From: a virus
IMG/VR virus record: IMGVR_UViG_3300029309_000006
Coordinates: 1-64,000 of that record
Strand: one strand, 5' to 3'
Length of the DNA: 64,000 nt
Below are positions 1-36,848 of this stretch, one piece after another. The notes beneath the pieces were generated by a model that worked only from the letters and a program-made list of their open reading frames with translations, had not been told where the DNA came from and did not search any database. Position 1 is the first letter of the stretch, and each line of letters begins with the position of its first letter. The position numbers and the translations under genes are program-made.

Positions 1-290
1 ATGACCTAGGTTACGTAGGCATAAATGAAACGAGCCCTAGCAATAAATTACAAATTTCAGATAGTACAGTAGGAACAGATTCAACAGCAGATGATAGCAA
101 TTTTATAAAATTAACAAACAAAGATATTGGAACAGCAAATGAGGTATGGGGTTTAGGTTTTTCTAGCGAATCAGGTGGAACTGATTACTTAGGTGGCTTT
201 GTTCAAGCGTTAGGCAATTTCGCCAGTAACTTCAACACTTCTTTAATATTTGGAACTAGAGGAACCTCAGGGAATGCCACAGAAAGAATG
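1..290 (+). repeat. Direct repeat copy 1 (tail-fibre module)
   Basis: Matches 30327-30616: the first 167 nt are identical, with mismatches at 168, 178, 196, 222, 224 and 281. Confidence 0.97.
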
Positions 291-2360
291 AGGATAGATA
301 GCTCTGGAAACGTAGGAATTGGAGTGTCAAACCCACAAAATTTATTAAGCTTATCTAAAGCCGGTGGTGCTAATATAAGATTTGACAACCCTACCACTAA
401 TAGACATTTTGTAATTGGCGAAGGCGTTGGTTCACCTGATAAATTTTCATTTAGAGGTCTCGGTTACCGAAGCACCGATACAATGACAATTGATTTTACT
501 AATGATCGAGTTGGAATTAGTACTCATTCGCCTGGCAGAAAATTAACTGTAGCTGGTGATGTATCAGGAGATGCAAACAACTTACTTTTATCAAATGAAA
601 ATGATACTAATGGTGATACTGCTAGTATTGGATTTAGTATGCTTAGCAATAATACTTTTGTTAAGTCAGGTATTTTCTTTGAAAGAACAACTACTCAAGG
701 TAGAGGAAGTTTGCATTTAGCTGTTAATAATGAAGCTAATAGCAATAATGTTAGTAAAAGCGATGCAAAATTAACCATTGACACCTCAGGAAATTTATCT
801 CTTGCAACTGCAACATCTTTAGATTTTAATGTAGCTGATTTTGCACAAATTAGATTTAAAGAATCGGCAGCTATAACTATTGATTCAGACAATAATCAAT
901 CAAGTAGAAATTTTCAAATTAAAGATGGTAGTGGCTCAAGTTTATTAACAATATTAGATACAGGGGATGCAACTTTTGCAGGTAACGTAAAAATAGGAAC
1001 TTCAACAACTGGCACACCATCAACAAACGCGGATGATTTAGTTATAGACAAAGGAGCAACTGAATCAGGAATTACTTTAATTTCAACTAATGCTGCTACT
1101 TTAAGATTTGGTGATGCTGCTAATACTTCAATTGGTTTTATAGAATATAATCATAATTCAAATTATATGCGATTTGGCACTAATGCCGCAGAAAGAATGC
1201 GAATAAACAGTTCAGGAAACGTAGGAATTGGTGCTCAATCAGGCGGAACTTTAAATAATATACTACAAGTATCTTCGGGAACAAATGCGGATGGTATTAT
1301 ATTAACAGGTATTGGAGATAGCTCAGGTTTAGCAAATGGAAATTATAGAAGAATAGGTTTTAGATTTGATGAAACAGATGAAAGTTTTGAAAGTGAAATA
1401 AGATTTGTAGTTACAGATCAAAATGCCCACGGCGGTCAAATGCAATTTGTTACTGACAACTCATCTGGAACAAAATCAATAGCAATGACTATTGACAAAA
1501 ATCAAAACGTAGGAATTGGAACTACGATACCCTGGCTTCCCCTTATGATACAAAAAGCATCATCATCTACAAGTCAATCAGCAGATTCATCATTTCGATT
1601 ATGTTTAAGTAACTCTGACCAAACTAATAATAATTATGCTTTAATTTCTTTTATTGATGGTGATGGCAACCCAGGAAGTGCATATATGGGCTGTCAATAT
1701 GTTGACCATACTAATAATTATGGAGATATACTTTTTGGTACAAGAAGTGCATCAGGATTATCAGAAAAAAAGCGTATTACAAGTGCGGGATTCACTAAAG
1801 CAAAAACAGGTGGTAATTATTTTGGTGGTTCTTATCACGAATTTTGTAATAACAATAATGTAAGTGGAGATAGAGTTATGGTACTTGGAAATACAGGAGG
1901 TAGTGCTACAAATAATACCTCAAGTATTGCTTTAACTGTTGCTGATAATGCTAATGATAGATTAAAGATTTTTGGAAATGGTAATGTAGTAAATTTAAAT
2001 AATTCTTATGGTGCAAGTTCAGATATTAAATTAAAAGAAAACATAGTAGATGCTACTTCAAAATTAGATGACTTAATGAAGGTTAAGATTCGTAATTATA
2101 ATTTTATTGGAGATGATAAAAAACAAATTGGCGTAGTTGCTCAAGAATTAGAAGATATATTTCCTAATATGATTGATGAATCTATTGATTATGAATATAA
2201 AAAAATTAAAGATAAAGAGGGTAATATAACTGAAGAAAATATAGATTTAGGAACTACTACAAAATCAGTTAAATATTCCGTATTCGTTCCAATGTTAATA
2301 AAAGCAATACAAGAACTAAAAGCAGAAATTGAAACTTTAAAAACACAAATAAATAAATAA
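3..2360 (+). CDS. Tail fibre with C-terminal intramolecular chaperone (peptidase S74-like), 5'-truncated by the window
   Basis: Frame is open from position 3 (DLGYVGINETSP...) into ORF 288..2360. Repeated ERMRI/GNVGIG motifs, SDIKLKENI, GVVAQE and a C-terminal coiled coil. Confidence 0.9.
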   Translation, partial: DLGYVGINETSPSNKLQISDSTVGTDSTADDSNFIKLTNKDIGTANEVWGLGFSSESGGTDYLGGFVQALGNFASNFNTSLIFGTRGTSGNATERMRIDSSGNVGIGVSNPQNLLSLSKAGGANIRFDNPTTNRHFVIGEGVGSPDKFSFRGLGYRSTDTMTIDFTNDRVGISTHSPGRKLTVAGDVSGDANNLLLSNENDTNGDTASIGFSMLSNNTFVKSGIFFERTTTQGRGSLHLAVNNEANSNNVSKSDAKLTIDTSGNLSLATATSLDFNVADFAQIRFKESAAITIDSDNNQSSRNFQIKDGSGSSLLTILDTGDATFAGNVKIGTSTTGTPSTNADDLVIDKGATESGITLISTNAATLRFGDAANTSIGFIEYNHNSNYMRFGTNAAERMRINSSGNVGIGAQSGGTLNNILQVSSGTNADGIILTGIGDSSGLANGNYRRIGFRFDETDESFESEIRFVVTDQNAHGGQMQFVTDNSSGTKSIAMTIDKNQNVGIGTTIPWLPLMIQKASSSTSQSADSSFRLCLSNSDQTNNNYALISFIDGDGNPGSAYMGCQYVDHTNNYGDILFGTRSASGLSEKKRITSAGFTKAKTGGNYFGGSYHEFCNNNNVSGDRVMVLGNTGGSATNNTSSIALTVADNANDRLKIFGNGNVVNLNNSYGASSDIKLKENIVDATSKLDDLMKVKIRNYNFIGDDKKQIGVVAQELEDIFPNMIDESIDYEYKKIKDKEGNITEENIDLGTTTKSVKYSVFVPMLIKAIQELKAEIETLKTQINK

Positions 2361-2362
2361 TT

Positions 2363-2686
2363 ATGGCAAATACATACGAATGGCGAATAAACTGTTTAGA
2401 CACTAAAATTAAGCAAGATAAAAAAAGTAATGTAGTATATAACGTACATTGGTCTTACATAGCTAAGGATGATTCAGAAACGCCTTATATGGCAAGTTCT
2501 ATAGGTACTTATGGTGTAACTTATGATAAATCTAATTTTATTACATATTCTAAGCTTACAAAAGAAGATGTGGTAGGTTGGCTTGAAGCAGGGTTAGATG
2601 TAGATTCTATGAAAAAAAGTTTAGATAATCAAATTGAATTACAAAAAAATCCTGTCGATAATCATTTGAAGCCAAACTGGGATTAA
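2363..2686 (+). CDS. Tail-fibre-associated protein
   Basis: Follows the fibre gene. Motifs NVVYNVHW and VVGWLE; homologous to 37357..37713. Confidence 0.6.
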   Translation: MANTYEWRINCLDTKIKQDKKSNVVYNVHWSYIAKDDSETPYMASSIGTYGVTYDKSNFITYSKLTKEDVVGWLEAGLDVDSMKKSLDNQIELQKNPVDNHLKPNWD

Positions 2687-2712
2687 TTATATTTACATAA
2701 AAAATATATATT

Positions 2713-3101: not shown

Positions 3102-3102
3102 A

Positions 3103-3764: not shown

Positions 3765-3770
3765 TAAATT

Positions 3771-5294: not shown

Positions 5295-5699
5295 ATGAGA
5301 AAAATAACTCGTAAAGGACTTATTAAAAGACTAGATACTGTATTTTCAGAATACATAAGAAAGAAAAATGCAGATAGTAGAGGGTATGTTACCTGTATAA
5401 CATCAGGTCGTAAATACCACTACAGCGAAGTAGATGCAGGTCACTTTATATCACGTAAAGAAATGTCTACTAGGTGGCACGAAGACAATGTACACCCACA
5501 ATCAAGATACGATAACAGATACAGATACGGAAAGCAATATGAATACGGACTTGCACTAGATAATAAAAAAAAAGGTCTTGCTAAAAGACTATATAAACTA
5601 TCTAAACAAACTGTAAAGTATTCAGTAAACGACTTACAAGAATTACTAGATAAATACAAAAAACTATTGCACAACGAAAATAAAAGGTTATCTTTGTAG
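5295..5699 (+). CDS. NinG/Rap-like recombination endonuclease
   Basis: LDTVFSEYIR, GYVTCITSG, DAGHFISR, RWHEDNVHPQ. Confidence 0.85.
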   Translation: MRKITRKGLIKRLDTVFSEYIRKKNADSRGYVTCITSGRKYHYSEVDAGHFISRKEMSTRWHEDNVHPQSRYDNRYRYGKQYEYGLALDNKKKGLAKRLYKLSKQTVKYSVNDLQELLDKYKKLLHNENKRLSL

Positions 5700-5733
5700 A
5701 ACTTATCAATCTTTGATATAGTTGTTTTGTTTT

Positions 5734-6642: not shown

Positions 6643-6978
6643 ATGGAAATAACAGGAACAATAAAACAAATAGGAGAAACTAAAACATTTGGAACAAAAA
6701 ACTTTGAAGTAAGAAAGTTACTTATAGAAACCAAAGAAAAATACCCACAAATGATTGAACTAGACTTTCAGAATAAAAATTGTTATGCACTAGACAATTA
6801 CGCTGTAAACGATGAAGTAAAAGTAGGTTTTAATTTAAGGGGTCGTGAATGGAAAAATAAAGAAGGAGAAACTAAATACTTTAATACAATCGTAGGTTGG
6901 AAGATTGACCTAAATGAAGAAGTTACTTTACAAGATCAAAACGCTGATAGAGAACCAGTAAGTGACTTACCCTTTTGA
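6643..6978 (+). CDS. ssDNA-binding protein (DUF3127-like)
   Basis: MEITGTI...YPQ...FNLRGREW...YFNTI; acidic DLPF tail. Confidence 0.8.
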   Translation: MEITGTIKQIGETKTFGTKNFEVRKLLIETKEKYPQMIELDFQNKNCYALDNYAVNDEVKVGFNLRGREWKNKEGETKYFNTIVGWKIDLNEEVTLQDQNADREPVSDLPF

Positions 6979-7193: not shown

Positions 7194-8094
7194 TTTTGGA
7201 GATGAATTAGACAAAGTAGACCAAATAAGAAAAGGAATATTAAAAGAAGCTCCTAGAATTGGAATAGATGAAATTGACAATGTTATACGATTCAAAAGAA
7301 ATTTGACTTGTTTTGCAGGTCACGCCAACGTAGGTAAAACTTCTATTATTCTTTATTTTATGATGGTGTTTGCTCAAAAGCATAAAATTAAATTTCTTGT
7401 ATTTTCTTCTGAAAATGAGCCTTACTCAATTATAAGAAAACTTATAGAGTACAAGTCTGCTAAACCAATTAACAAAATATCTAAAACAGAATTACACAAA
7501 CACTCACAGTTTGTAAATAAACATTTTAAATTTATTGACTGCGAAAAGAATTATGATTACTTAGATTTATTATCTTTATGTGAAGTAATGTACGATCAAG
7601 GTCAATTTGATTGTCTTATAATAGACCCTATTAATAGTCTAAGAAAAAATAAAGGTATGATGAAATTTAGTAACGCTTATGAATATCTTTATGAAATGAT
7701 GACAGATTTTAGGATATTTGTAAAAAAGTATAATGTAGGTATGTGGCTTATTATGCACTCAGTAACAGAAGCATTTAGAAAAAGATACGGAGCTAATCAC
7801 GAATATGCAGGACACCCACTTCCACTAGCTATGTCAGATGTTGAAGGTGGTAATGTATATGGAAACAGAACAGATGATTTTTATACAATACATCGTTTAA
7901 CACAACACGAATCTAGGTGGATATATACAGAATTACATTGTAAGAAAATTAAAGACCACGATACAGGCACTAAACCTACAGGGTTTGACAGTCCACTAAT
8001 TTTAGAAAGCATAGCAAACAATGTAGGGTATAAGATGGGAGAACAAACAACAATCAACAAATCAGTAATAGAACAACTTAACTTTCCATTTTGA
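7183..8094 (+). CDS. DnaB-like (SF4) replicative helicase
   Basis: Walker A GHANVGKT, FSSEN, Walker B LIIDP, VEGG. Confidence 0.85.
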   Translation: MLINFGDELDKVDQIRKGILKEAPRIGIDEIDNVIRFKRNLTCFAGHANVGKTSIILYFMMVFAQKHKIKFLVFSSENEPYSIIRKLIEYKSAKPINKISKTELHKHSQFVNKHFKFIDCEKNYDYLDLLSLCEVMYDQGQFDCLIIDPINSLRKNKGMMKFSNAYEYLYEMMTDFRIFVKKYNVGMWLIMHSVTEAFRKRYGANHEYAGHPLPLAMSDVEGGNVYGNRTDDFYTIHRLTQHESRWIYTELHCKKIKDHDTGTKPTGFDSPLILESIANNVGYKMGEQTTINKSVIEQLNFPF

Positions 8095-8567
8095 AAACAC
8101 CAGTTGAAAAGGCATATCAAAGACACGACAAATGGATAGAGATTGTCAGGTCGTTTGGTGGTCTAAGAGAAACTGAGGTAGAAGACATTGTATCGGAACT
8201 TTATATATTACTTATTAGAAACACACAAAAGGGTGTAGACTTTTCTTTCAATGATGACATAAATTATTATTATTGTTATAGAATACTTAGAGGTTTATAC
8301 GTTGATCTTATAAGAAAAAAAATTAAAGTATCTTTTGTTACTTTAGACAATGTAAAGATTAGCGAGGAGAATACAGTCAATTATGAAGAAGTATTTGAAA
8401 AAATACAAAAAGCATTAAAGGAGATATACTGGTATGATCGCAAAGTTTATGAAATAGTAGATGATGGTATTTCTGTAAGTGAGCTGTCTCGTAAATCACA
8501 AATAAGTTATTACAGTCTTTACAATACTTTGAAGCGAGTAAAAACAAAATTAAAACAATTAATATGA
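8091..8567 (+). CDS. Phage ECF-like sigma factor / HTH regulator
   Basis: Region-2-like VEDIVSELYI; region-4-like HTH ISVSELSRKSQISYYSLYNTLKRVK. Confidence 0.65.
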   Translation: MKTPVEKAYQRHDKWIEIVRSFGGLRETEVEDIVSELYILLIRNTQKGVDFSFNDDINYYYCYRILRGLYVDLIRKKIKVSFVTLDNVKISEENTVNYEEVFEKIQKALKEIYWYDRKVYEIVDDGISVSELSRKSQISYYSLYNTLKRVKTKLKQLI

Positions 8568-8728: not shown

Positions 8729-8933
8729 AGAAGAATATAAACATTGGACAAACTTCAAGTCTGTAAATAGTAGTACAATAAATATAAGTGAACAAAAACT
8801 TATTGCTAACTTACACAGCAAATATTTTAATCATAAATATTATATACCTTGCTCTTGTAGTCCTAGAATTTGGAACGACTGGATTAAAGATATAAATACT
8901 ATATACGACAATGAAAATAGAAACAGTTCATAA
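8712..8933 (+). CDS. Hypothetical protein (PCSC motif)
   Basis: ORF track; overlaps neighbours in operon fashion. Confidence 0.6.
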   Translation: MAKLSKEEYKHWTNFKSVNSSTINISEQKLIANLHSKYFNHKYYIPCSCSPRIWNDWIKDINTIYDNENRNSS

Positions 8934-9324
8934 GTTTGAAAGAACAGTAGTTAGGTGGCTTAACGAATTTGAAGGATGGGATTTAAATTGGTGTGGTGGT
9001 AAATTTGAACATTACGACTGTAAAGGCAAAACAAAAAAAGGACACGACTGTGTAATAGAAATGAAGTTCAGAAAAAAATACTATAAAGAAAAGATGCTTG
9101 AAAAATATAAATACGATAAGCTAATGGAAATGGATTCAGAAATAGTTAAATTATATTTTGTATCAGACCCTAAAGGAACTTATTTGTATTGGCTTAATTA
9201 TTTAGAAGTACCAAAGATAAAAGAAATGTATTGCCCTGAGACATCGTTGTGGTCAAAGAAGAAAGTAAAGAAACAGGTTTACTTACTTACAGAAGATATG
9301 GCTAGTATAGTATATAAAGAATAA
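8911..9324 (+). CDS. PD-(D/E)xK nuclease-like protein
   Basis: HYDC...VIEMKFR. Confidence 0.6.
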   Translation: MKIETVHKFERTVVRWLNEFEGWDLNWCGGKFEHYDCKGKTKKGHDCVIEMKFRKKYYKEKMLEKYKYDKLMEMDSEIVKLYFVSDPKGTYLYWLNYLEVPKIKEMYCPETSLWSKKKVKKQVYLLTEDMASIVYKE

Positions 9325-9385
9325 TTATAATTTGTTAATAATTATTAGTATATTGCAAAAGACAAAACAAGAATTATTATCTTCT

Positions 9386-9637
9386 ATGAACGTTAAAGAA
9401 AAACAAAAATACGAAGCGTGTTTTAATTACATAGGCGAAGCTATGACTAAGGCATATGAAAGTGCTGATAAAAAAAGACGAAGTGAAATAAGCTCATATA
9501 TTAAATGCCTTAACAATATGTATGTTTATACAAACAACTTAGAAATAAAATTAATGATAAATGACACAAACAAAAATTCAACTTTTAGACGGAAAAGATT
9601 ACAACAAGAAAGACCTTTTGAAAAAAATGGTAGATGA
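9386..9637 (+). CDS. Hypothetical protein
   Basis: ORF 9332..9637 with a probable ATG start at 9386. Confidence 0.45.
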   Translation: MNVKEKQKYEACFNYIGEAMTKAYESADKKRRSEISSYIKCLNNMYVYTNNLEIKLMINDTNKNSTFRRKRLQQERPFEKNGR

Positions 9638-10340
9638 TAGTTTCTACTATGGAGAACTAAATCAATTAGCTTTAAGCAGTTCTTCTTTGAAATTATTATT
9701 ATCAAGTCCTAAAACTTACAAGTATGTTACTAAGTATGGTAATCCTGAAACACAACCATTAAGAGATGGCAGACTTGTACACCTTAGTATATTAGAACCT
9801 AGAAAATTTGAAGCTTTAAACTTTGTAGATGTATCGAGTAAAAACTCTAAAAAATACAGAGAAGCTAAATTAGAATTTGGAGAAGTATATACAAGATCAG
9901 AAAAAGAAAACGCTGAGAAAATAGCAGATGCTTTTTTAAAAAACGAACACGCTTTAAAAACAATTACAAACTGTGCTTTTGAAATACCATCAATAGGAAT
10001 AGTACAGGGCTACCCATTTAGAGGTAAAGCAGATGTACTTACAAATAATGGCATTGTAGATTTAAAAACTTCTACAGACATAAAAGGCTTTCCGTATGCT
10101 GCAAAAAAATACTCTTACGATGTACAATGTTATTTGTATTGCAAACTGTTTGATGTATCACACGAGCAATTTAAGTTTGTAGTGATAGACAAAGGTTCAC
10201 TTGACATTGCGATATGGAAATGTAGTAAAGAGTTCTACGAGGAGGGTAAAAGAAAAACAAAAGAAGCAATAGAAATATTTGAAAAGTTTTTTATAGAAGG
10301 TCAAGACATAGATAACTATATAATAGAAGGATTATTATGA
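9561..10340 (+). CDS. RecE/ExoVIII-like exonuclease (DUF3799-like PD-(D/E)xK)
   Basis: LSSSSLK, GRLVHLSILEP, RGKAD, VDLKTS, YDVQCYLY. Confidence 0.8.
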   Translation: MTQTKIQLLDGKDYNKKDLLKKMVDDSFYYGELNQLALSSSSLKLLLSSPKTYKYVTKYGNPETQPLRDGRLVHLSILEPRKFEALNFVDVSSKNSKKYREAKLEFGEVYTRSEKENAEKIADAFLKNEHALKTITNCAFEIPSIGIVQGYPFRGKADVLTNNGIVDLKTSTDIKGFPYAAKKYSYDVQCYLYCKLFDVSHEQFKFVVIDKGSLDIAIWKCSKEFYEEGKRKTKEAIEIFEKFFIEGQDIDNYIIEGLL

Positions 10341-11473
10341 TTAAAATTAAAAAAGAATTTAAAAGTTTAATACCAAATTTAACTAAAGAAGAATTTAAGC
10401 AATTAGAACAAAACTGTTTAGATGAAGGTATAAGAGAAAAAATACTTGTTTGGAATGGTTTTATTATTGATGGTCATAACAGATATGAGATTTCTTTAAA
10501 GTGGAATTTAGAAATACAAACAGAAACAAAACATTTTAAAGATGAAGAAGCTGTAAAGGAATGGATGATCTTAAACCAATTTGGTAGAAGAAATTTAAGT
10601 AACTATCAAAGAAGTGTTTTAGCATTACAACTTGAAGAAGTGTTTAGTAAAAAGGCTAAAGAAAATCAAGCTATACAATATAAAGGAAGTTCACTTTCGC
10701 AGAATTCTGCAGAAGTGAAACCAATAGAAACAAGAAACGAACTTGCAAAAGTAGCAAACGTATCACACGATACAATAGCTAAAGTAAAAAAAATACAAGC
10801 ACAAGCAAGTGAAGAAGTTAAAGCAAAACTATCTACTGGCGAAGTAAGTATAAATTCAGCTTTCCAAGATATTAAGAAAGAAGAAAAAAAGAAGAATAGG
10901 CTTGAAAAAATAGAGCAAATAAAACAAGAAATTTCTAAAGGTTTGAAAGCTCCAAATGGTTTATATGATGTAATATCTATTGATCCTCCTTGGGAATATT
11001 CAGAACGTGGAGGGAGTAGTCACAATTCATTTGATGCAGTAGGTAATCGAGCAGGTGTTGATTATCCTACTATGACAGTAGAAGAATTAAAAAAAATAAA
11101 TATTCCTGCTAAAAGCGATTGTGTTATGTTTTTGTGGACTACACACGCTTTTTTAAAAGATTCTTTTGATTTGTTAGATGCTTGGGGGTTTAATTATAAA
11201 GCTACTTTGGTGTGGGATAAAGTTAAAATGGGTATGGGTAGAAACATAAGGATGCAAGTAGAATTTTGTTTACTTGCTACCAAAGGAAAACCAATTTTAA
11301 ATGGTAGTGGAGAACGTGATATTATTACTGAACCTAGGAGAGAACACAGCAGAAAACCTGAAGCTTTTTACACTAAAGTTGATAATATGACTGTTGGTTA
11401 TAAATTAGATTATTTTGCAAGAGAACAAAGAAAAAATTGGTTTACATATGGAGCAGAAGTTGGAAAGTTTTAA
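10337..11473 (+). CDS. ParB-like N-domain fused to MT-A70 family N6-adenine methyltransferase
   Basis: IIDGHNR (ParB/Srx-like); DPPW, FLWTT, VWDK, EHSRKPE (MT-A70). Confidence 0.85.
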   Translation: MIKIKKEFKSLIPNLTKEEFKQLEQNCLDEGIREKILVWNGFIIDGHNRYEISLKWNLEIQTETKHFKDEEAVKEWMILNQFGRRNLSNYQRSVLALQLEEVFSKKAKENQAIQYKGSSLSQNSAEVKPIETRNELAKVANVSHDTIAKVKKIQAQASEEVKAKLSTGEVSINSAFQDIKKEEKKKNRLEKIEQIKQEISKGLKAPNGLYDVISIDPPWEYSERGGSSHNSFDAVGNRAGVDYPTMTVEELKKINIPAKSDCVMFLWTTHAFLKDSFDLLDAWGFNYKATLVWDKVKMGMGRNIRMQVEFCLLATKGKPILNGSGERDIITEPRREHSRKPEAFYTKVDNMTVGYKLDYFAREQRKNWFTYGAEVGKF

Positions 11474-12341: not shown

Positions 12342-12347
12342 CATTCA

Positions 12348-12373
12348 AAAATTAATATTATTTTTCGATATAT
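12348..12373 (+). promoter_or_regulatory. Unit A late-promoter motif copy 1 (AAAAT-N13-CGATATAT)
   Basis: Upstream of terS; one of five copies with identical spacing. Confidence 0.7.
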
Positions 12374-12413
12374 AGATATACAAAAGATTAATTAATTAAT
12401 TTATATTAATTCT

Positions 12414-12662
12414 ATGGATGGTAGAAAAAACAATGGAGGACACTCTACAAAAGGCAGAGCAGGTAGAAAACCAAAGACAGAAGAAATACAACTTATAGAA
12501 AAACTTACACCTTTAGAACCATTAGCTTTTGCAGCATTGAAAGAAGGATTGAAGAATAAAGACTTTAAGTTTGTACAACTTTATTATAATTATGTAGCAG
12601 GTAAACCAAAAGAAACAAAAGACATTCATATAAACGAAGATGTACCATTATTTATTGATTAA
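12414..12662 (+). CDS. Terminase small subunit (putative)
   Basis: Immediately upstream of terL; GRAGRKPK N-terminus. Confidence 0.6.
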   Translation: MDGRKNNGGHSTKGRAGRKPKTEEIQLIEKLTPLEPLAFAALKEGLKNKDFKFVQLYYNYVAGKPKETKDIHINEDVPLFID

Positions 12663-14392: not shown

Positions 14393-14423
14393 AAAGAGCG
14401 ATCAGAAATGGTCGCTTTTTTTT
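14393..14423 (+). terminator. Rho-independent terminator
   Basis: AGCGATC-AGAAAT-GGTCGCT stem plus T-run. Confidence 0.75.
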
Positions 14424-14433
14424 GTTTATAACT

Positions 14434-14459
14434 AAAATGCTTGATTTATTTCGATATAT
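14434..14459 (+). promoter_or_regulatory. Unit A late-promoter motif copy 2
   Basis: AAAAT-N13-CGATATAT, 4 nt before the ATG at 14464. Confidence 0.7.
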
Positions 14460-14463
14460 ATAT

Positions 14464-24799: not shown

Positions 24800-25696
24800 A
24801 TGGCTACTACTACTTCAATTACTACTTCTTACCAAGGGGAATTTGCAGGTGATTACATCGCTGCAGCACTTCTTTCAGGGGTGACTTTATCACAAGGAGG
24901 AGTAACAATAAAACCAAATATTAAATTTAAAGAGGTTTTGAAAAAACTCTCAATGGATTCAATTCTAAAGGATGCTTCCTGTGACTTTGACCCATCGAGT
25001 AACGTAACTTTAACTGAAAGGATTCTACAACCAGAAGAATTTCAAGTTAACTTACAATTATGTAAAAAAGATTTCAGACAAGATTGGGAAGCTAACTCAA
25101 TGGGATTCAGTCAATATGACAATCTACCGAGTAAGTTTTCAGACTTTTTAATTGCACAAGTTGCAGCTAAAGTTGCTGAAAAAGTAGAACAAAACATTTG
25201 GCAGGGTGCTACTGCAAATGCAGGAGAATTTAACGGATTCCAAGCATTACTTGCAGCAGACGGAGACGTTGTTGATGTTTCAGGTACTACACTTTCGGCT
25301 TCAAACATCGTTGCTGAGATTTCAAAAGTTGTTGATGCAATTCCTAGCGGGGTCTATAATAAAGAAGATTTAAAAATCTATATTCCTACAAGTGCTGCTA
25401 AGTTTTATATTCAAGCACAAGCAGCTTTAGGTTATAGAGAACTATATAACGTAGGTAAAACTGAAATGAATTTCCAAGGTATTCCATTATTTACTGCACC
25501 TGGATTAGGAGCAGATAAAATGGTTGCAGCACAATCAAGCAATCTTTACTTCGGTACAGGTCTATTAAATGACTGGCAAGAAGTTAAGCTTATTGATATG
25601 GCTGATATTGACGGAAGTCAAAATGTAAGAGTTGTACTAAGAGGATCTGCAGGTGTAAATCACGGAATAGGTGCAGATATAGTACTTTATTCTTAA
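24800..25696 (+). CDS. Major capsid protein (unit A)
   Basis: Highly biased codon use; YQGEFAG, LTERILQP, NLYFGT; followed by a terminator. Confidence 0.75.
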   Translation: MATTTSITTSYQGEFAGDYIAAALLSGVTLSQGGVTIKPNIKFKEVLKKLSMDSILKDASCDFDPSSNVTLTERILQPEEFQVNLQLCKKDFRQDWEANSMGFSQYDNLPSKFSDFLIAQVAAKVAEKVEQNIWQGATANAGEFNGFQALLAADGDVVDVSGTTLSASNIVAEISKVVDAIPSGVYNKEDLKIYIPTSAAKFYIQAQAALGYRELYNVGKTEMNFQGIPLFTAPGLGADKMVAAQSSNLYFGTGLLNDWQEVKLIDMADIDGSQNVRVVLRGSAGVNHGIGADIVLYS

Positions 25697-26310: not shown

Positions 26311-26340
26311 AAAAGGGGGTTTTATACCTCCTTTTTTTTT
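26311..26340 (+). terminator. Rho-independent terminator
   Basis: AAAAGGGGGT-TTTAT-ACCTCCTTTT plus T-run. Confidence 0.75.
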
Positions 26341-26350
26341 GCTTTATTAC

Positions 26351-26376
26351 AAAATCACTATATTATTTCGATATAT
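26351..26376 (+). promoter_or_regulatory. Unit A late-promoter motif copy 5
   Basis: AAAAT-N13-CGATATAT before the ATG at 26381. Confidence 0.7.
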
Positions 26377-26380
26377 TAAT

Positions 26381-26746
26381 ATGAAAGTATTGACTACAAG
26401 TAGTTCAGCACAAACTTTAGATGTAGTTCCTAGAACTTATATTTCTAGCTATACAATGAAACTTAGAGATACAAGCAAAAATAAAGAAGTATTTAGTTCA
26501 TCTGTAACTGGAATTACAAATGGTAATTTTAAAAGAATATCTGCAACTATAAGCCCTATATTAAAAGAGGGTAGGTATTATGATTTAACTTTACTAAATG
26601 GAGCTACAGTAGTATATAGAGATAAAATATTTTGCACAGATCAAACTATAAATCAGAACAACAATGATTATTACGAAATAAATTCAGGTCAATATACTTT
26701 TGATGAAACAGCAGGGTCACACGATAACGATTATATAATAGTATGA
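26381..26746 (+). CDS. Structural protein (hypothetical)
   Basis: Probable ATG start at 26381 within ORF 26339..26746. Confidence 0.55.
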   Translation: MKVLTTSSSAQTLDVVPRTYISSYTMKLRDTSKNKEVFSSSVTGITNGNFKRISATISPILKEGRYYDLTLLNGATVVYRDKIFCTDQTINQNNNDYYEINSGQYTFDETAGSHDNDYIIV

Positions 26747-29047: not shown

Positions 29048-32000
29048 ATGGCAACATTAACAAACACACAAATATCGGTAACGTATGTAGGGTTATTAAA
29101 GACAAGTGCTAGTACAGTACTAAGTTCTACTGCTCAACAAATTACTGATGGTTCAGGCAATAATAGTATTTTATTTCTATCTACAGCAGGAGTTGGAATA
29201 GGTGGTGCTGCTAGTGCAGGTAAAGAATTTGAAGTTACAGGTAACGCTAAAATTACAGGAGACCTTATAGTAGATAACATAAAGATAGATGCCAATACTA
29301 TTTCTGCTGAAACTGGTGTTGTTACTCTAGCAGATGGTGCTATTGCTACAACTCAAAGTGCAAGTGATAATTCTACTAAAATTGCTACGACTGCATATGT
29401 AGATGCTCAGGTTACTGCTCAGGACTTAGATTTTAGTGGTACATCAGGCACAGGTTCAGTTGATTTAGATTCTCAAACATTTGCTGTAGTAGGTACTGCT
29501 AATGAAATTGAAACATCTGCAGGTAGCCAACAGTTACAAATAGGACTTCCCAATGATGTGACAATAAGTAATAAATTAACTGTTAATACTAACTTAGAAA
29601 TAGAAGATAATCACATTAACCAAACGACTGGTCAACTTAAAATAGAATCAGCAGATAGTATAGTATTAGATGCTACTGGTGATATTGTTTTTAAAGATAA
29701 TAATCAACAGTTTGCAAAGTTTGTAAACACTAATGGTATTTTATCAATTGAATCTACCCTAAAAAAACAAGCAAGTTTTGCTGACACAGGAGTTGAATTA
29801 TATGCAAATGATGTTAAAAAATTAGAAACCGAAGATGCAGGAGTTACAATAATTGGTGCTTTAAATGTTGATAGTGTGACTTCTACAGGTGGTGCAACTT
29901 TTGGAGGAACAGTAACTACTTCACAAATAACTAGCAGTGGTAATTTTACTATTGATTCAGCATTACAAATTATACTTGATGGTGCTGATGATGGTTCAAT
30001 ACAATTAAAAGATGATGGCACTCTATATGGTCTTATATATTCAACTTCAGATGACTTTTATATTAAATCAACAGTTTCTGATGGAGATATTATTTTTCAG
30101 GGTAATGATGGGGGTGTAGGTAAAACAGTTTTAACGTTGGATATGTCTGAAAATGGCAATGCAACTTTTGCAGGTGAGGTAAAATTGCAGTCAAGTAATG
30201 CTTTTACAACATTAAGAACTGGTAATGATTTTGGTTGGAGTATATATGCTAATTCAAGTAATTTTTTAACTTTTGGAACTGGAGCAGCAGCTAATACAAA
30301 AGCAACAGATTGGGTGACCATTCGAGATGACCTAGGTTACGTAGGCATAAATGAAACGAGCCCTAGCAATAAATTACAAATTTCAGATAGTACAGTAGGA
30401 ACAGATTCAACAGCAGATGATAGCAATTTTATAAAATTAACAAACAAAGATATTGGAACAGCAAATGAGGTATGGGGTTTAGGTTTTTCTAGCAAATCAG
30501 GTGCAACTGATTACTTAGGTGCCTTTGTTCAAGCGTTAGGCAATTTCACTAGTAACTTCAACACTTCTTTAATATTTGGAACTAGAGGAACCTCAGGGAA
30601 TGCCACCGAAAGAATGCGAATTAACAGTTCTGGAAAAGTAGGAATCGGAGAAACAGCACCTGCCGCTAAACTAGATGTTAAAGTTGCTTCAAATGAACAT
30701 TTTTTAGTTAGTGATTCTTTATCTACTGTATCATTAAAAGCTACTAATGATGCCGCTGCTGCTTACGTTCCAATGTCAATTAATGGTTCAGCTTTAACTA
30801 TAAATGCTGATTCTGGTGGAAACGTCGGGATTGGAACTGCTTCGCCTGGTTATAGACTTTCAGTAGCTAATGCATCAACTAGAATTGTATCAATAAATTA
30901 TCAAGATAGTATAAATACAATTATGTCTCATGCGGGTTCACCTAATTATGGTTTAGAAGCATTAACTATTAGAGGAGATTATATAGCTTTTTATACAGAT
31001 TATGACGTTAGTCATTATCAAGGTGTTGAAAGAATGCGTATAACATCTGCAGGACAAGTTAATATACATCCTATAAACGATACAAGTGAGACACTTAGAG
31101 TTTTTAGAGGTACTGGTGCATTTGCTTCTCAATCAATTTCTATTGATGCAAAAAGTGGTGATGCAAATATTAGATTACTTGCAACTGATACTGCAAGGTC
31201 AACTGTATTTTATAGGTCATCAGATGGAGGTAGTAATTTTACAGAAAGTATGCGTATAGGCAGTAATGGAAATATTGCTCAAGCAAATACAAGTCCAATA
31301 GCTGACCCTTTTGTCAATGGTGCAGAACAATGGATGACTTACCAAATTGGAAAAGCAGGAGTATTAGGTGCATACAAAAATAATAATGAAAGTATGTTTG
31401 GTTTTAATACATATTTTTCAGCACCAAGTGGAGTAAATAAAGCAATAGTTTCTGGTTTAGATGGAACTGCAACAAGATATTATGCTGATAGAATTACATT
31501 TAATACTTTAACAAGTTCTGGAACTACTCAAACGCAAACAGAAAGAATGCGTATTACATCTGGGGGTAACATTAACATAGGTTCTGGTGGTTTAACACAA
31601 ACTGCATATCAATTAAGAGTAGATTCTGATTTTGATAATGGTATTTATTTGAGTGCAGCTTCAGGAAACGATAGTGCATTGTATATTGATAATGGAGCTG
31701 GAACTGCAGAATTATTTATAGTTAGAGGAGATGGAAATATAAAAATACCTGGAATTGGTGTTACTACTGGTGCTACTGCTGTTGGAGTAGATTCAAGTGG
31801 TTTTATTAGAAAGTTATCATCATCAAAAAGATATAAAAAAGATATTGAGTCAATTGATATAGGTTTAGATTTTATAAATTCTTTAAGTCCAGTTAAGTTT
31901 AAAATGAAAGAAGATGATGTTGAAAGTGTTGGATTAATTGCTGAAGATATGATTGACAATAGGTTTGTTACATATTCACAAATTGATATGAAAGATGAAT

Positions 32001-32107
32001 CTAAAGGTTTGCAAGTCGAGGGGGTTAATTATCAAGCACTAATAGCACCATTAATTAAATCAATCCAAGAACTAAAAGCAGAAATAGAATTATTGAAAAG
32101 TAAATAA
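29048..32107 (+). CDS. Tail fibre with S74-like chaperone (spans the A/B junction)
   Basis: DNSTKIATTAYV, ERMRI/GNVGIG repeats, SSKRYKKDI, GLIAED, coiled coil. Confidence 0.88.
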   Translation: MATLTNTQISVTYVGLLKTSASTVLSSTAQQITDGSGNNSILFLSTAGVGIGGAASAGKEFEVTGNAKITGDLIVDNIKIDANTISAETGVVTLADGAIATTQSASDNSTKIATTAYVDAQVTAQDLDFSGTSGTGSVDLDSQTFAVVGTANEIETSAGSQQLQIGLPNDVTISNKLTVNTNLEIEDNHINQTTGQLKIESADSIVLDATGDIVFKDNNQQFAKFVNTNGILSIESTLKKQASFADTGVELYANDVKKLETEDAGVTIIGALNVDSVTSTGGATFGGTVTTSQITSSGNFTIDSALQIILDGADDGSIQLKDDGTLYGLIYSTSDDFYIKSTVSDGDIIFQGNDGGVGKTVLTLDMSENGNATFAGEVKLQSSNAFTTLRTGNDFGWSIYANSSNFLTFGTGAAANTKATDWVTIRDDLGYVGINETSPSNKLQISDSTVGTDSTADDSNFIKLTNKDIGTANEVWGLGFSSKSGATDYLGAFVQALGNFTSNFNTSLIFGTRGTSGNATERMRINSSGKVGIGETAPAAKLDVKVASNEHFLVSDSLSTVSLKATNDAAAAYVPMSINGSALTINADSGGNVGIGTASPGYRLSVANASTRIVSINYQDSINTIMSHAGSPNYGLEALTIRGDYIAFYTDYDVSHYQGVERMRITSAGQVNIHPINDTSETLRVFRGTGAFASQSISIDAKSGDANIRLLATDTARSTVFYRSSDGGSNFTESMRIGSNGNIAQANTSPIADPFVNGAEQWMTYQIGKAGVLGAYKNNNESMFGFNTYFSAPSGVNKAIVSGLDGTATRYYADRITFNTLTSSGTTQTQTERMRITSGGNINIGSGGLTQTAYQLRVDSDFDNGIYLSAASGNDSALYIDNGAGTAELFIVRGDGNIKIPGIGVTTGATAVGVDSSGFIRKLSSSKRYKKDIESIDIGLDFINSLSPVKFKMKEDDVESVGLIAEDMIDNRFVTYSQIDMKDESKGLQVEGVNYQALIAPLIKSIQELKAEIELLKSK
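30327..30616 (+). repeat. Direct repeat copy 2 (tail-fibre module)
   Basis: 284/290 identical to 1-290. Identity ends at GAAAGAATG (ERM motif). Confidence 0.97.
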
Positions 32108-34522
32108 ATGGCAAATTTATCTAATATTAATGATTTATTTGAGGTTGAAAGTACTGGTGCTATTAAATTCAGTAATCAATCAGGTACTTCTGGGCAAGTA
32201 TTAAAATCAAATGGTAATGCAGCTCCAACGTGGGTAAATGCTTCAACTGTTATAGGTGGACCATATTTACCTTTAACAGGTGGTACGCTTACAGGTAATT
32301 TAGCAATAAACGGTTCTAATAGTTTAACAGTTGGTGGAGCTTTATCAGGAAGCACTGCAACCTTTTCAGGTAACGTAGGAATTGGAGTTGCTGCTCATGG
32401 TACCGCTTCTTTAAATATTACAAACGCCAATCAACATATACGATTAAATAATGGCTCAGAACTTGGAGTTATATCTCTTTTATCAACTGGTGAATTAGAT
32501 ATTTGGGGACATGGCACTAATGAAACAATTAATTTTAGAACTGGAACTGGAAGTGGTACTGTTGCTTTAGATATAACTGGAGTTAACTCAACTTTTGCAG
32601 GAAACGTAGGAATAGGTCGTTCTCCAGTGGCTTATGGTTCTTTTAAGGTTTTAAATTTAGCAGGTTCTTCAGGTGCAATACAAAAATTAATACACACAGG
32701 AAATACTGTTGAATTACAATCTTTTGCATCAGCTTCAGTTGGCGCTATTGGTACAGCGACAAATCATTCTTTATTGTTAACAACAGGTGACGTAACTGCT
32801 TTAACCATAGATACACATCAACAGATTTCATTAAACGGAGTAGGTGGAAGTGATGGATTCACTGTGCCTTTTTACAATGACCCAGGCTACAGTAATATGA
32901 CAGCAGGTGGGTTTGGCATATTGTTTAGAAATAATTATGATTCTTATGTAACCAATAATGCTTATTATGTTGCCGATCCTGGTGGACAATGGAGATCAAA
33001 ATACACCACTAGAGCTGCAAGTGTTTTATCAATGCTAGATGGTAAATTTGGCTTTTCTACCGCAGCTGCAAATACAACTTCTCCTTATGGGCTTGCTTTT
33101 AGTGAGGTCATGACTATTTTACAAAACGGAAACGTAGGAATTGGAACTACTAACCCTATATTATATAGTAGTGGGTGGGGAAAAGCTTTGGGAATAAAAG
33201 CAGCAAGCGGATATGCCGTAATACAAGTTGCTGGTAGTAATGGAAATGGAGGAGAGGTAGACTTAGGAGATGCTTCTATACGTCACGCTGCTATTGCTTC
33301 TTTAACTGGCTCTAAATTGGCATTTTATACTAACGGTTCAAATTCTGGGTCTACTGTCTTACAAAGAATGACTATTGACGGTTCTGGAAAAGTAGGAATC
33401 GGAACGGCTTCGCCTGTGGCTAAATTTCATGTATCAGGTGATACTGGCGGTACTGATTCAATAGCAAGATTTCAAAACACAAATTCAGCTAAAGTTACAA
33501 AAATACAATTATTAGATAGTTCAGGTACTGTAGGAGATGCTCTTATAGCGTACGATCATTCAAATGCAAGTTCAGGTTTACATTATTTAGGAATGGGTGT
33601 TAATAATATCACAACTTTAGTTATAAACAATAATGACAATGTAGGAATCGGGACGACTTCACCTAATAAAAAATTAACAGTATATGGCGGTAATGATAAT
33701 GGTATATGGATAGATAGTCAAGGTGCTCAATATACTTCATTAGCTTTTGGTAACAATGGAACTGAAAAAGCTAATATAGCGTGGGATAATACCAATGGAT
33801 ATACTAATATAAGCACTTATTCAAATGGTCATTTAGCTATGTCTACAGGTGGTTCAATAAATGCATTTCTTAACTCTAGTGGTAATTTTGGAATAGGGCT
33901 TACAATTCCTAGTGCTAAATTACATGTTCAAGGAAAAGTAAAAATTAATAGTGCTACAGCACCTGCAGGTAATGCAGAATTAAACATAGGCTACGTAGGT
34001 GGCGGAGAAACTAGGTCAATAGATATACATGGTGGCTGGACTGGAAATGAAAGTAAATCAATAACTTTTACACACGGTACTTCGCTTGCTGACATAGTTG
34101 GTCAAATTAATGTTCAACATACTAGTCCAGGTTCTAGAATAAGATGGGGAAAATTATTCCATAGTGGTAATTCTAGCACTTATACAATGACATTGACATC
34201 AACATCAACAACAACAGCAGATCTAACTGTCGCGGGCAATATAACTGCTTCAGCCGATGTAGTAGCTTATTCTGATAAACGATTAAAATCAAATATAAAA
34301 ACACTTGACGGGTCAAAAGTATTAAAAATGCGTGGTGTGTCATTTGATAAAGAAGGCCAAAAAGGTAGTGGGGTTATAGCTCAAGAGTTAGAAAAAATTG
34401 CACCTGAGTTAGTAAATAATGATAATGAATATAAAGGAGTTGCATATGGTAATTTAACTGGTTATCTTATTGAAGCTATAAAAGAATTAGAAGCTAGAGT
34501 AAAAGAATTAGAAAACAAATAA
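32108..34522 (+). CDS. Tail fibre with S74-like chaperone
   Basis: YLPLTGGTLTG, multiple GNVGIGTT.P, SDKRLKSNI, GVIAQE. Confidence 0.88.
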   Translation: MANLSNINDLFEVESTGAIKFSNQSGTSGQVLKSNGNAAPTWVNASTVIGGPYLPLTGGTLTGNLAINGSNSLTVGGALSGSTATFSGNVGIGVAAHGTASLNITNANQHIRLNNGSELGVISLLSTGELDIWGHGTNETINFRTGTGSGTVALDITGVNSTFAGNVGIGRSPVAYGSFKVLNLAGSSGAIQKLIHTGNTVELQSFASASVGAIGTATNHSLLLTTGDVTALTIDTHQQISLNGVGGSDGFTVPFYNDPGYSNMTAGGFGILFRNNYDSYVTNNAYYVADPGGQWRSKYTTRAASVLSMLDGKFGFSTAAANTTSPYGLAFSEVMTILQNGNVGIGTTNPILYSSGWGKALGIKAASGYAVIQVAGSNGNGGEVDLGDASIRHAAIASLTGSKLAFYTNGSNSGSTVLQRMTIDGSGKVGIGTASPVAKFHVSGDTGGTDSIARFQNTNSAKVTKIQLLDSSGTVGDALIAYDHSNASSGLHYLGMGVNNITTLVINNNDNVGIGTTSPNKKLTVYGGNDNGIWIDSQGAQYTSLAFGNNGTEKANIAWDNTNGYTNISTYSNGHLAMSTGGSINAFLNSSGNFGIGLTIPSAKLHVQGKVKINSATAPAGNAELNIGYVGGGETRSIDIHGGWTGNESKSITFTHGTSLADIVGQINVQHTSPGSRIRWGKLFHSGNSSTYTMTLTSTSTTTADLTVAGNITASADVVAYSDKRLKSNIKTLDGSKVLKMRGVSFDKEGQKGSGVIAQELEKIAPELVNNDNEYKGVAYGNLTGYLIEAIKELEARVKELENK

Positions 34523-34523
34523 T

Positions 34524-36848
34524 ATGGCATTATTACATGAAATAAATAACGGATCAGAAAGATTTTCAGTAGACGAAGTAGGAGCAGTAAAAATAAACAA
34601 TGCTTTTACTTTACCCACTGTAGCAGGTGTAAATGGTTATGTGTTAACATCAAATGGTTCTGGTGCTTCTGCTTGGCAAGCATCTACAGGAGGAGTTGGT
34701 GGCGCTGGTACTGGTCAAAAAGTAGCAAAGTTTGCTGGAACAGGTACTTCATCTACTCTAGGAGATGGCCCAATAACTTTTTCAACTAATGATTCAGCTT
34801 TTGCAGGTGCAATAGCAACATCTGGTAATATAACAGCTACTGCATCGAACGCTACAATTTCAGCTGCTGAAAGCGGTGGTGCTACAACAAAAATAATGGG
34901 TGCTAGTGTGGGTAGAGTTGGTACATCTAGTAATCATAACCTTGAAATTTTATCAAATAACACAGCAGCAATAACCATAGACACTTCACAAAACGCAACT
35001 TTTGCAGGGAATATTTCAACAACAGGTGATATAAATATTAACGGGGGAACGAGTTACAATGATAAAAGTAATCTTTATCTGTCTAATGGTAGGACTTTAA
35101 TACAATCTGATATTGTAAATGCAACCGCTAACGGTGACACAAGTTTAGATTTTCAAACAAGAAGCGCAGGTTCATTAGCTTCAGCTATGTTTATTGATGA
35201 ATTTAGAAAAATAGGAATCGGAACTACTTCGCCTGATTGGGCTTTAGATATTGAAGCTGTAAGCACTGGAGTTCAATTGCAAATAGGTAGAACTACTACT
35301 AGTGCAGGCTCTACTTGGATGGGTTCTGATTCAAATGGCTTTCATTTAGGCGTTGGGGCGTATGGTGGTGGAAACTCTGTTTCTGATCCTAATGGTTTTA
35401 CTGTAGATACTTCTGGAAACGTTGGAATTAAAACAACTCCTAGTACTAGGCTACATGTGTCTGGAAGTTTTGATCCTGATGATGCACTGGGATATGCTTT
35501 AATCGAAAACACTAGTACAGCTGGCGCATCTGCTGAAAACTCAGCTATTAATGTTAAAAATTATCGTGGCACTTCTCAATTTATGCAGTGGGAAGGAAAT
35601 GGATTAAGGATTGGTAGTAGAATTTTAACTAATAGCGGCGTAGGTGATGTTTATTTTACAGCTGGAGCAGATAGTGTTAAAATGGTTGTAAAAGCTGGCG
35701 GAAACGTAGGAATCGGAACCACAAACCCTAATTTTAAACTTCACTTAGCAAGTACTGGTGCTGATACTCTTTTACGACTTGAAAATACTACTACTAATAG
35801 ATACCCTAATCTAAGATTCACAGCGGCAGGTGCAGAATATGACATAGGTGTTGGAGGTACTGGAACAGCAACAGGGTATGTACATAATTTTTATATTTAC
35901 GACATAACTAATTCTGCGCCTCGTATTACTTTAACTCAAGCAGGAAACGTAGGAATAGGAACAACTGTGCCTAACGCTAGGTTAGAAGTTTTAACCTCTA
36001 CTGCAGGGTTTAGCAGTATTATTAGAAACACAAACGCAAATAATGACTCTAATGGGTTATTAGTTAAAGCTGGTACTCAAGGTACTGAATATGCTCTTAA
36101 AGTTAGTAACACTAATGATACTCAAAACTTTATGTCTATAAAAGGAAGTGGAAACGTAGGAATTGGAACAACTTCACCTTCTTCTACTTTTCAAATTGGT
36201 GGTGGAACTGCTAATGTTTTACAAAAAATACATGGTAGTGGAACAGCTGGTATTCAAATATTTACAAATTCACCCTCTACTGGTACTAAAATAGCCTCTT
36301 TAGAACAATATTTTTCAAACGAAGGGTTTTTAGGGTTGTATTATAATGGTAGTCAAACAGTTAGATTTAGAGCAAATGGCAAATCTTTTATTAATGGAGG
36401 GTTTGTAGGAATCGGAACAACAAATCCTTATTATGAGTTAGAAGTTCAAGGGCAAGGATATTTTAGCTCACATTTATATGCACACTGTTTAGGTGTTGGA
36501 GCAGCTACACCAAATTCTTTAGGAGTTATCAGAGCAGCTGGAGATGTTATTGCATATTATTCATCAGACAAAAGGTTAAAAGATAATATTGTAAAAATAG
36601 AAAAGCCTTTAGAAAAGCTTGATAAAATTAACGGATATGAGTTTGATTGGAATAACAAACAAGAGCTTTATAAAGGACATGACATAGGAGTTGTTGCTCA
36701 AGAAGTAGAACAAGTATATCCAGAACTAGTAGAGACTCGCAAAAGTGGATATAAAGCTGTTAAATATGAAAAATTAGTACCTTTACTTGTAGAAAGTATA
36801 AAAGAATTAAAAACTGAAATAGAACAACTTAAAAAACAAATTAAATAA
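34524..36848 (+). CDS. Tail fibre with S74-like chaperone
   Basis: Multiple GNVGIGTT.P, SDKRLKDNI, GVVAQE. Confidence 0.88.
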   Translation: MALLHEINNGSERFSVDEVGAVKINNAFTLPTVAGVNGYVLTSNGSGASAWQASTGGVGGAGTGQKVAKFAGTGTSSTLGDGPITFSTNDSAFAGAIATSGNITATASNATISAAESGGATTKIMGASVGRVGTSSNHNLEILSNNTAAITIDTSQNATFAGNISTTGDININGGTSYNDKSNLYLSNGRTLIQSDIVNATANGDTSLDFQTRSAGSLASAMFIDEFRKIGIGTTSPDWALDIEAVSTGVQLQIGRTTTSAGSTWMGSDSNGFHLGVGAYGGGNSVSDPNGFTVDTSGNVGIKTTPSTRLHVSGSFDPDDALGYALIENTSTAGASAENSAINVKNYRGTSQFMQWEGNGLRIGSRILTNSGVGDVYFTAGADSVKMVVKAGGNVGIGTTNPNFKLHLASTGADTLLRLENTTTNRYPNLRFTAAGAEYDIGVGGTGTATGYVHNFYIYDITNSAPRITLTQAGNVGIGTTVPNARLEVLTSTAGFSSIIRNTNANNDSNGLLVKAGTQGTEYALKVSNTNDTQNFMSIKGSGNVGIGTTSPSSTFQIGGGTANVLQKIHGSGTAGIQIFTNSPSTGTKIASLEQYFSNEGFLGLYYNGSQTVRFRANGKSFINGGFVGIGTTNPYYELEVQGQGYFSSHLYAHCLGVGAATPNSLGVIRAAGDVIAYYSSDKRLKDNIVKIEKPLEKLDKINGYEFDWNNKQELYKGHDIGVVAQEVEQVYPELVETRKSGYKAVKYEKLVPLLVESIKELKTEIEQLKKQIK

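Follow-up and report, generated by a model that had tools for sequence, protein, structure and literature searches.

Tail-fibre modules with junctions at capping-loop linkers in two unrelated marine phages fused in one viral record

The first 64,000 nucleotides (nt) of the viral record IMGVR_UViG_3300029309_000006 (hereafter the window) contain tail-fibre frames whose shafts are built from segments separated by a short recurrent linker, and our comparisons indicate that segments have been exchanged at this linker. Four frames, at 3-2360, 29048-32107, 32108-34522 and 34524-36848, all lie on the forward strand, as do all features given below, and each combines tail-fibre PHROG matches with a C-terminal Peptidase_S74 domain (PF13884, 33.7-58.9 bits against a gathering cut-off of 22). 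Predicted autoproteolysis sites of the S-D/S-K-R-L/Y-K-like type are visible in the fibre translations. A preliminary interpretation made from the letters alone (the sequence-only reading) had taken these frames as four fibre genes of one element; the four S74 frames do exist, but they belong to two phages and one of them is chimeric. The record, which is 95.7 kb long and listed as 'complete', is a mis-join of a 30.3-kb phage (phage A) and a phage of about 65 kb (phage B), and the point of joining is a 290-nt fibre module common to these two marine phages (module R). The frame 29048-32107 is therefore an assembly chimera of a phage A N-terminal part and a phage B C-terminal part.

Several lines of evidence separate the two phages. 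The record holds two terminase/portal sets, at 12662/26743 and 47749/49968. The second set has a relative in a complete genome of 66,248 bp that bears terminal repeats (terminase 75% identical) and lacks the first portal, and the CheckV figures of fragments akin to the first and the second set correspond to genomes of about 31.6 kb and about 64.5 kb. The tetranucleotide CATG is absent from 1-30326, where 81 copies are expected, and occurs 99 times in the remainder (to 95752), with the first copy at 30929 and none from the fibre start at 29048 up to 30928. GGCC (0 versus 55), CCGG (1 versus 30) and GCGC (1 versus 49) are distributed in the same way, and the confinement of this avoidance to the phage A part suggests different restriction pressure or different hosts. 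In Logan contigs from an independent sample (run X3), depth was 104 upstream of the second copy of module R and 22-27 downstream, while in another sample (run X4) the downstream fibres were present and 29094-30281 was almost absent. The variant letters of the first R copy were carried at the higher, phage A, depth. Finally, joining 30326 to base 1 keeps the reading frame. From the terminase/portal sets, the CATG counts, the depths and the in-frame closure we conclude that phage A is a separate 30,326-bp circle with a single fibre gene of about 1212 amino acids (aa).

The N-terminal 426 codons of this phage A gene lie at 29048-30326, where the record fuses them to phage B sequence, and its C-terminal 785 codons lie in frame with them at 3-2360, truncated by the record start (Peptidase_S74 E 2e-10 with tail-fibre PHROGs, S74 domain at about 2019-2171). 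Phage B has the fibre gene ending at 32107, whose C-terminal part is 30617-32107 (S74 at about 31820-31954), followed by TF2 (32108-34522, 804 aa, S74 at about 34271-34414), TF3 (34524-36848, 774 aa, S74 at about 36564-36731) and two more fibre-like genes outside the window. If phage B is closed at 95752 and 30327, the reading frame shifts, so part of that phage B gene is missing from the record. At 95313-95752, also outside the window, another fibre gene, which opens with MANLSNINNKF as TF2 does, leaves the record end exactly at a junction-like G-G-A-L-T-F sequence. A megablast search of 29048-36848 against GenBank phages gave no match, and the region thus has no cultured relative there. In Logan contigs of two samples, at depths of 50 and 90 that exceed phage B, the end of TF2 is followed, after 11 other letters, by the gene that lies downstream of TF3, in a joint whose shorter side is only 29 nt; a more abundant relative seems to lack TF3 (34524 to 36848).

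A repeat search combined with a six-frame motif scan identified 22 independent linkers of the form x-x-[VIF]-G-I-x then T-x-x-P-x-x-K-L-x-V, often with ERM[RT]I ahead, along with a second recurrent junction type, A-T-F-A-G. Up to six linkers are iterated in a gene, where they bound every shaft segment. In the C-terminal part of the phage A gene they are GYVGINETSP (9-38), ERMRIDSS-GNVGIGVSNP (282-335, the 3' end of module R), DRVGISTHSP (504-533), an ATFAG-type linker (969-982), ERMRINSS-GNVGIG (1191-1244) and QNVGIGTTIP (1503-1532); its N-terminal part has a degenerate AGVGIGGAAS (29186-29215) and an ATFAG-type linker (30161-30174). The phage B gene ending at 32107 carries GYVGINETSP of the second R copy (30335-30364), ERMRINSS-GKVGIGETAP (30608-30661), GNVGIGTASP (30818-30847), ERMRITSAGQVNI (31028-31066) and ERMRITSGGNINIG (31541-31579). 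TF2 carries ATFSG-GNVGIG (32357-32398), STFAG-GNVGIG (32588-32629), GNVGIGTTNP (33128-33157), GKVGIGTASP (33386-33415), DNVGIGTTSP (33635-33664) and GNFGIGLTIP (33881-33910), and TF3 an ATFAG-type linker (34995-35008), RKIGIGTTSP (35205-35234), GNVGIKTTPS (35415-35444), GNVGIGTTNP (35700-35729), GNVGIGTTVP (35943-35972), GNVGIGTTSP (36150-36179) and GFVGIGTTNP (36399-36428).

At the DNA level the 11-mer AACGTAGGAAT occurs nine times (0.05 expected), at 309, 1218, 1506, 32372, 32603, 33131, 35703, 35946 and 36153, exactly where the sequence-only reading had placed it, and the near variants GTAGGAATCGG are likewise present at 30638, 33392, 33641 and 36405. The ERMR word GAAAGAATGCG recurs four times (1191, 30608, 31028 and 31541) and GCAACTTTTGCAGG three times (969, 30161 and 34995). 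For these two words the recurrence reported earlier holds, as do three and two of the positions, respectively; the last position of each had been given one base too high, as 31542 and 34996.

The linker also has a precedent as a protein motif. The best PDB sequence matches of all the fibres are Bdellovibrio MAT fibres (8OND at E 4.5e-6, 8OJN and 8OML). TF3 residues 283-490 match the Bd2133 fibre (8OND), and three TF3 linkers align with three Bd2133 motifs. Caulton et al. (2024, PMC10769870) describe V-G-G/N-pi-x-x-P-x-x-x-L as 'capping loops' located where intertwined trimeric beta-helix segments have their edges, common to phage S74 proteins and MyRF, and 22 instances of the recurrent V-G-(I)-G/N-small-x-x-P-x-x-x-L motif could be aligned among the fibres studied here. 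The linker thus appears to be first of all the known structural capping loop of S74-type trimeric beta-helix fibres. A search of full-text literature for 'GNVGIG' found no paper. The modules between linkers had been called unrelated, but several pairs are 30-37% identical over 57-100 aa and so are not; they are diverged copies of one shaft unit, whose fold is assigned from the sequence matches to the MAT fibre structures.

Module R is the one segment present twice in the window, at 1-290 in phage A, where it runs from the GYVGIN linker to the ERM|R linker, and at 30327-30616 in phage B. The copies are 98% identical, with 6 differences in 290 bases, and identity stops directly after GAAAGAATG, as had been noted from the sequence: 10 of the next 40 bases, from base 291 on, differ. 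The 3' limit of identity is thus a linker, and the 5' end is a linker and also the contig start. A module at 98% identity is therefore common to two unrelated, co-occurring phages.

The same pattern extends to other phages. We collected relatives' loci from IMG/VR, compared them by blastn and counted matches of at least 80% identity. Matches to other marine phage contigs were module-sized (190-310 nt), 80-98% identical in DNA, and ran from linker to linker, for example at 30852-31042, 31028-31251, 32357-32609, 33638-33897 and 35700-35965. A module at 967-1231, bounded by the ATFAG-type linker at 969 on its left and the ERMRINSS linker at 1191 on its right, was common to six contigs. At the linker at 31028 the matches to L129 and L130 stop and a match to L216 begins, and identity to L124 is 94% over 31535-32119, a match that begins at the ERMR linker and has unlike sequence upstream. 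Eighteen of the 25 distinct match ends fell in linker zones, which make up 14% of gene length (p 8e-11), and 21 of the 25 lay at most 15 nt from a linker. When the other loci were compared all against all, 26 of 61 distinct match ends fell in linker windows against 7.3 expected (p 2e-9), again with a peak at or below 15 nt from the linker. The proposal that breakpoints pile up on the linkers is therefore borne out both for the record and among other phages.

The clearest single case is contig L204, in which the neighbouring gene is 99.6% identical to that of phage B and the TF2 orthologue is a mosaic. This orthologue is about 95-97% identical to TF2 up to the ATFSG linker (32357) and then unalignable; it is 98-100% identical between the linkers at 33635 and 33881, after which it carries the TF3 segment 35700-35943 and then diverges until the last 17 residues. 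Every switch in identity lies at a linker, and a TF2 module and a TF3 module are adjacent in one gene. This pattern goes beyond rate variation and implies that segments were replaced. The L204 mosaic, together with the occurrence of module R in 30-kb and 65-kb phages, agrees with the earlier claim that modules move within and between unrelated phages. These data show module exchange with junctions in the linker, among related phages as well as across unrelated members of one community.

Logan contigs of three samples carried one dominant module order for phage B, and independent contigs crossed most phage B linkers without any difference. Linker-to-linker joints were also found, connecting 31563 to 33386, 31054 to 35212 and 32609 to 34989 (the last at depth 803). 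We considered these joints as alternative module orders of phage B and rejected them, their sides being only 20-30 nt long and coming from other fibre genes; they show that linker DNA is common in those samples.

The linkers were also found to be more uniform in DNA than conservation of their protein sequence requires. The word AACGTAGGAAT was used at 9 of 14 NVGI sites, whereas 0.66 are expected from fibre-gene codon usage (p 2e-9), and the excess persisted with dipeptide-context frequencies (p 1e-8). Linker Asn was AAC in 11 of 14 cases against a fibre-gene background of 28% (28-37% over the backgrounds used), the central Gly was GGA in 19 of 22 against 36% (27-36%), Val was GTA in 15 of 20 against 47%, and Ile was ATC in 6 of 22 against 3% (3-6%). 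In-register exact identity of at least 14 nt was seen in 35 of 231 linker pairs, compared with 6.6 when the same peptides were back-translated with random synonymous codons, and the longest exact run common to two linkers was 23 nt. The sequence-only reading was thus right that the linkers are not freely recoded. Context-dependent codon bias was tried as a cause of this spelling and rejected: elsewhere in the genome AAC makes up 37% of the Asn codons that precede Val, GGA 25% of the Gly codons that precede Ile and ATC 6% of the Ile codons that precede Gly, so neighbour effects on the same dipeptides do not explain the linker bias. As a separate matter of codon use, the putative major capsid genes, at 24800-25696 (phage A) and 53591-55045 (phage B), are outliers, with Ile codons ATC at 16-29% and ATA at 16-18% versus 4% and 62% overall.

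A codon set from other phages, comprising 220 GNVGIGT sites in 115 viral loci from IMG/VR (loci L004-L123), revealed that the spelling is genome-specific, with a within-locus codon identity between copies of 0.51-0.80 versus 0.31-0.54 expected. Gly codons depend on their position within the motif (L085, p 3.5e-9; L115, p 2e-4), and several genomes use three different codons at the three motif Gly positions, a pattern that simple codon optimisation cannot produce and that speaks for the DNA itself having been inherited or exchanged. Contigs with modules in common with the record use its spelling at 2.9 of 5 positions, against 1.4 of 5 in other contigs. Motif third positions are GC-richer than the locus's own genes in 76 of the 115 loci (mean 0.46 versus 0.31), and the rare codons ACG and GGG are enriched in the motif even in genomes of 37-38% GC. 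Linker codons are thus shown to be lineage-specific and to depart from the genomic background.

We propose that these observations probably reflect homology-guided exchange of linker-bounded segments, as an evolutionary property of the gene family and not through a dedicated switching device. Under this proposal the fibre would be a trimeric beta-helix shaft closed by a self-cleaving S74 chaperone domain, with the shaft forming a chain of 60-100-residue segments that are each opened by one capping loop (...ERM[RT]I-x3-G-N-V-G-I-G-T-x-x-P-x-x-K-L-x-V). As such segments would begin and end in the same register, one could be replaced without breaking the trimer. A common linker spelling within one gene pool would give modules that are dissimilar elsewhere 11-23 nt of exact identity, and homology-dependent or 'relaxed' recombination may begin in these stretches during co-infection, for example by single-strand annealing after resection by the RecE-like exonuclease of either phage. 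Repeated exchange could in turn keep the linker spelling uniform, as in concerted evolution. We infer that linker DNA identity and phage nucleases may have a causal part in the exchange.

Candidate helper genes for such a process are present, as had been suggested: phage A encodes an exonuclease VIII (RecE-like) at 9561-10340 (phrog_412, E 1.4e-32), a NinG/Rap-like junction endonuclease at 5295-5699 (phrog_5034, E 2.6e-21) and an SSB at 6643-6978 (phrog_4932, E 1e-31), and phage B has an exonuclease VIII-like gene at record positions 82628-83359. The first two are regarded only as candidate helpers. We found no RVT_1 match and no match to PF00239 (serine resolvase/invertase) in the 95.7-kb record, in line with the suggestion that neither a reverse transcriptase nor an invertase is involved.

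A number of observations weigh against homology-guided exchange. No annealing protein was identified beside either exonuclease gene; for phage A none could be named because the nearby open reading frames (8091-8567, 8911-9324 and 9332-9637) had no PHROG match. Exact matches of 11-23 nt do not exceed the minimum length that efficient homologous recombination usually requires. The wobble positions of the linker Ile and the two Thr that follow are not homogenised (pair identity 0.28-0.35 versus 0.41-0.47 expected), although tracts of gene conversion would be expected to include these positions. The two putative major capsid genes moderately favour AAC, ATC/ATT and GGA, so part of the linker codon bias could be translational. 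Random recombination followed by survival of only those junctions that fall at structural boundaries would also place breakpoints at linkers. The related contigs, moreover, are metagenome assemblies, and some of them may be chimeric like this record.

The main rival accordingly invokes structure only: the protein motif is conserved, illegitimate recombination is random, only junctions at capping loops fold, and codon uniformity comes not from DNA exchange but from selection on translation, for accuracy or speed at a critical turn. The linker is indeed a known structural element, and the codon preferences of the putatively highly expressed capsid genes, the freely varying wobble positions of Ile and Thr and the raised third-position GC in 76 of 115 loci, which arises partly through NNC codons, all fit this explanation. 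We nevertheless consider it unlikely, as selection on translation would have to account for the preference of other phages for three different codons at three Gly positions of a single motif, for linkers that prefer GTA where capsid genes prefer GTT, and for the enrichment of the rare codons ACG and GGG in other dialects. The conserved IGVVAQE motif of the S74 domain, moreover, has mixed codons, and the junctions lie within a few bases of an identical stretch. Assembly error is a different concern, namely that the duplicated module and the mosaic relatives arose from assembler jumps at fibre repeats with no biological exchange. The record itself mis-joins two phages at the 290-nt module and short-sided linker-to-linker joints are plentiful in Logan contigs, yet an assembler can make such a jump only at sequence that two genomes truly have in common, so that a module found between unlike flanks is genuine in any case. 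Since each R copy also carries variants of its own at a distinct depth, the phage B module order is confirmed by independent contigs, and linker identities of at most 23 nt are below the final assembly k-mers, artefact as the whole explanation is very improbable. Recent tandem duplication within each gene could likewise make linkers alike in DNA, and the segments are homologous in the several pairs at 30-37% identity, but synonymous sites are saturated at that protein identity and the same spelling occurs in two unrelated phages. Identical residues just outside the motif have a codon identity at or below expectation, and with no excess there we excluded recent duplication as the cause, giving it hardly any chance.

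The sequence-only reading had gone further and proposed a dedicated receptor-shuffling system, a claim that does not stand, as the data show evolutionary mosaicism. In its strongest form this would be a diversity generator in which linker DNA is the target of a nuclease or recombinase that shuffles modules often and in a programmed way within the phage population. Some linker bases are conserved and others are not, resembling a recognition site, and RecE-like exonucleases occur in both phages with a NinG/Rap nuclease in phage A. The spelling, however, differs between phage lineages, the record gave no RVT_1 or resolvase/invertase match, a single phage B module order dominates in the three samples, and RecE-like and NinG nucleases are common general recombination genes, which makes a programmed generator highly unlikely. 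Another reading holds that linker DNA is itself selected, as a recombination adapter for the whole community: phages of one habitat, though unrelated, would keep a common codon 'dialect' that lets shaft and receptor-binding segments move from one to another. A nuclease that recognises the linker might take part as well, and biased gene conversion might have left its trace in the raised GC at linker wobbles. If true, the evolvability of the fibres would be encoded in synonymous sites, but we regard this idea as speculative and its chances as small.

Exchange of fibre modules at conserved motifs is already known from T-even gp37 and gp38 and has been proposed for DNA motifs in tailspikes; new here are a quantified marine S74-type case, exchange between two unrelated phages and a test at the codon level. 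In T-even phages, the His boxes of gp37 and the glycine-rich motifs of gp38 are described as sites of motif-based module exchange (Tetart et al. 1996/1998, via Trojet et al. 2011, PMC3157838). As in the phage A and B genes, short conserved motifs alternate there with variable segments and exchange junctions lie in or beside the motifs, which is the arrangement found here in the 18 of 25 and 26 of 61 match ends and in L204. The T-even gp38 adhesin is a monomeric polyglycine sandwich, whereas the fibres here would be trimeric beta-helix shafts with an S74 chaperone and another motif, and in contrast to the T-even crosses our evidence, from uncultured marine phages, is comparative only, extended by the test of linker codons and by the modules that unrelated phages have in common. 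Conserved DNA motifs flank the receptor-binding domains of E. coli phage tailspikes and are proposed recombination hotspots (Pas et al. 2023, PMC10408124), and 'putative recombination hotspots' are reported in receptor-binding proteins of Klebsiella phages (bioRxiv 10.64898/2026.05.12.724579). Those stretches resemble the linkers in being more conserved than their surroundings and in being proposed for exchange across taxonomic borders, but they lie at the boundary between N-terminal anchor and receptor-binding domain with one or two per gene, compared with up to six here.

The Bdellovibrio bacteriovorus MAT fibres share the capping-loop motif, the beta-helix segments and the S74 chaperone domain (S74 subgroup) but are bacterial surface proteins, unlike the virion fibres of phages A and B. 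The account of the motif in Caulton et al. (2024, PMC10769870) is structural; its conservation at the DNA level and the breakpoints are added here. In De Paepe et al. (2014, PMC3945230), phage Rad52-like recombinases are described as carrying out relaxed homologous recombination, a mechanism by which phages could exchange diverged DNA by way of short identical stretches; only the exonuclease partner is seen in our case, with no Rad52-like, RecT or Erf protein identified.

Diversity-generating retroelements and the Mu Gin and P1 Cin switches also vary phage receptor-binding proteins. Retroelements need a reverse transcriptase and a template repeat, and invertase switches need a serine invertase and inverted sites. 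The present genes differ from a retroelement in that no reverse transcriptase was found in the record and the differences between the R copies are A/G, C/G and T/C and not adenine-specific; they differ from Gin, Cin or a shufflon in having no serine recombinase match in the record and all fibre genes on one strand.

Fibres set phage host range, and the genes described here show, in a quantified natural case, how modules are exchanged at defined junctions, even where the partners are 30-kb and 65-kb phages with unrelated virion genes. Naming the junction as the capping loop of S74-type beta-helix fibres aids the reading of metagenomic fibre genes and helps to choose splice points for engineered chimeric fibres. 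Synonymous sites at the junction carry signal, each lineage having its own spelling. The record is also a caution, because shared fibre modules make assemblers fuse distinct phages into one 'complete' genome.

Some further features of the two phages were observed. No tRNA genes were found in the window. In phage B, a GroEL-like chaperonin is encoded at 38138-39697 (phrog_5725, E 1e-132). The phage A terminase large subunit (12662-13828) has only 388 aa and aligns to positions 275-598 of an 807-position profile; its N-terminal part may be separately encoded or very divergent. A ParB-like nuclease domain fused to a DNA methyltransferase (10337-11473) adjoins the RecE-like exonuclease of phage A. 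Finally, an intergenic motif (...TTATTTCGATATAT..ATATGAAAGTA) recurs before phage A gene blocks at 12343-12379, 14416-14472 and 26333-26389 and may be a promoter or another regulatory site.

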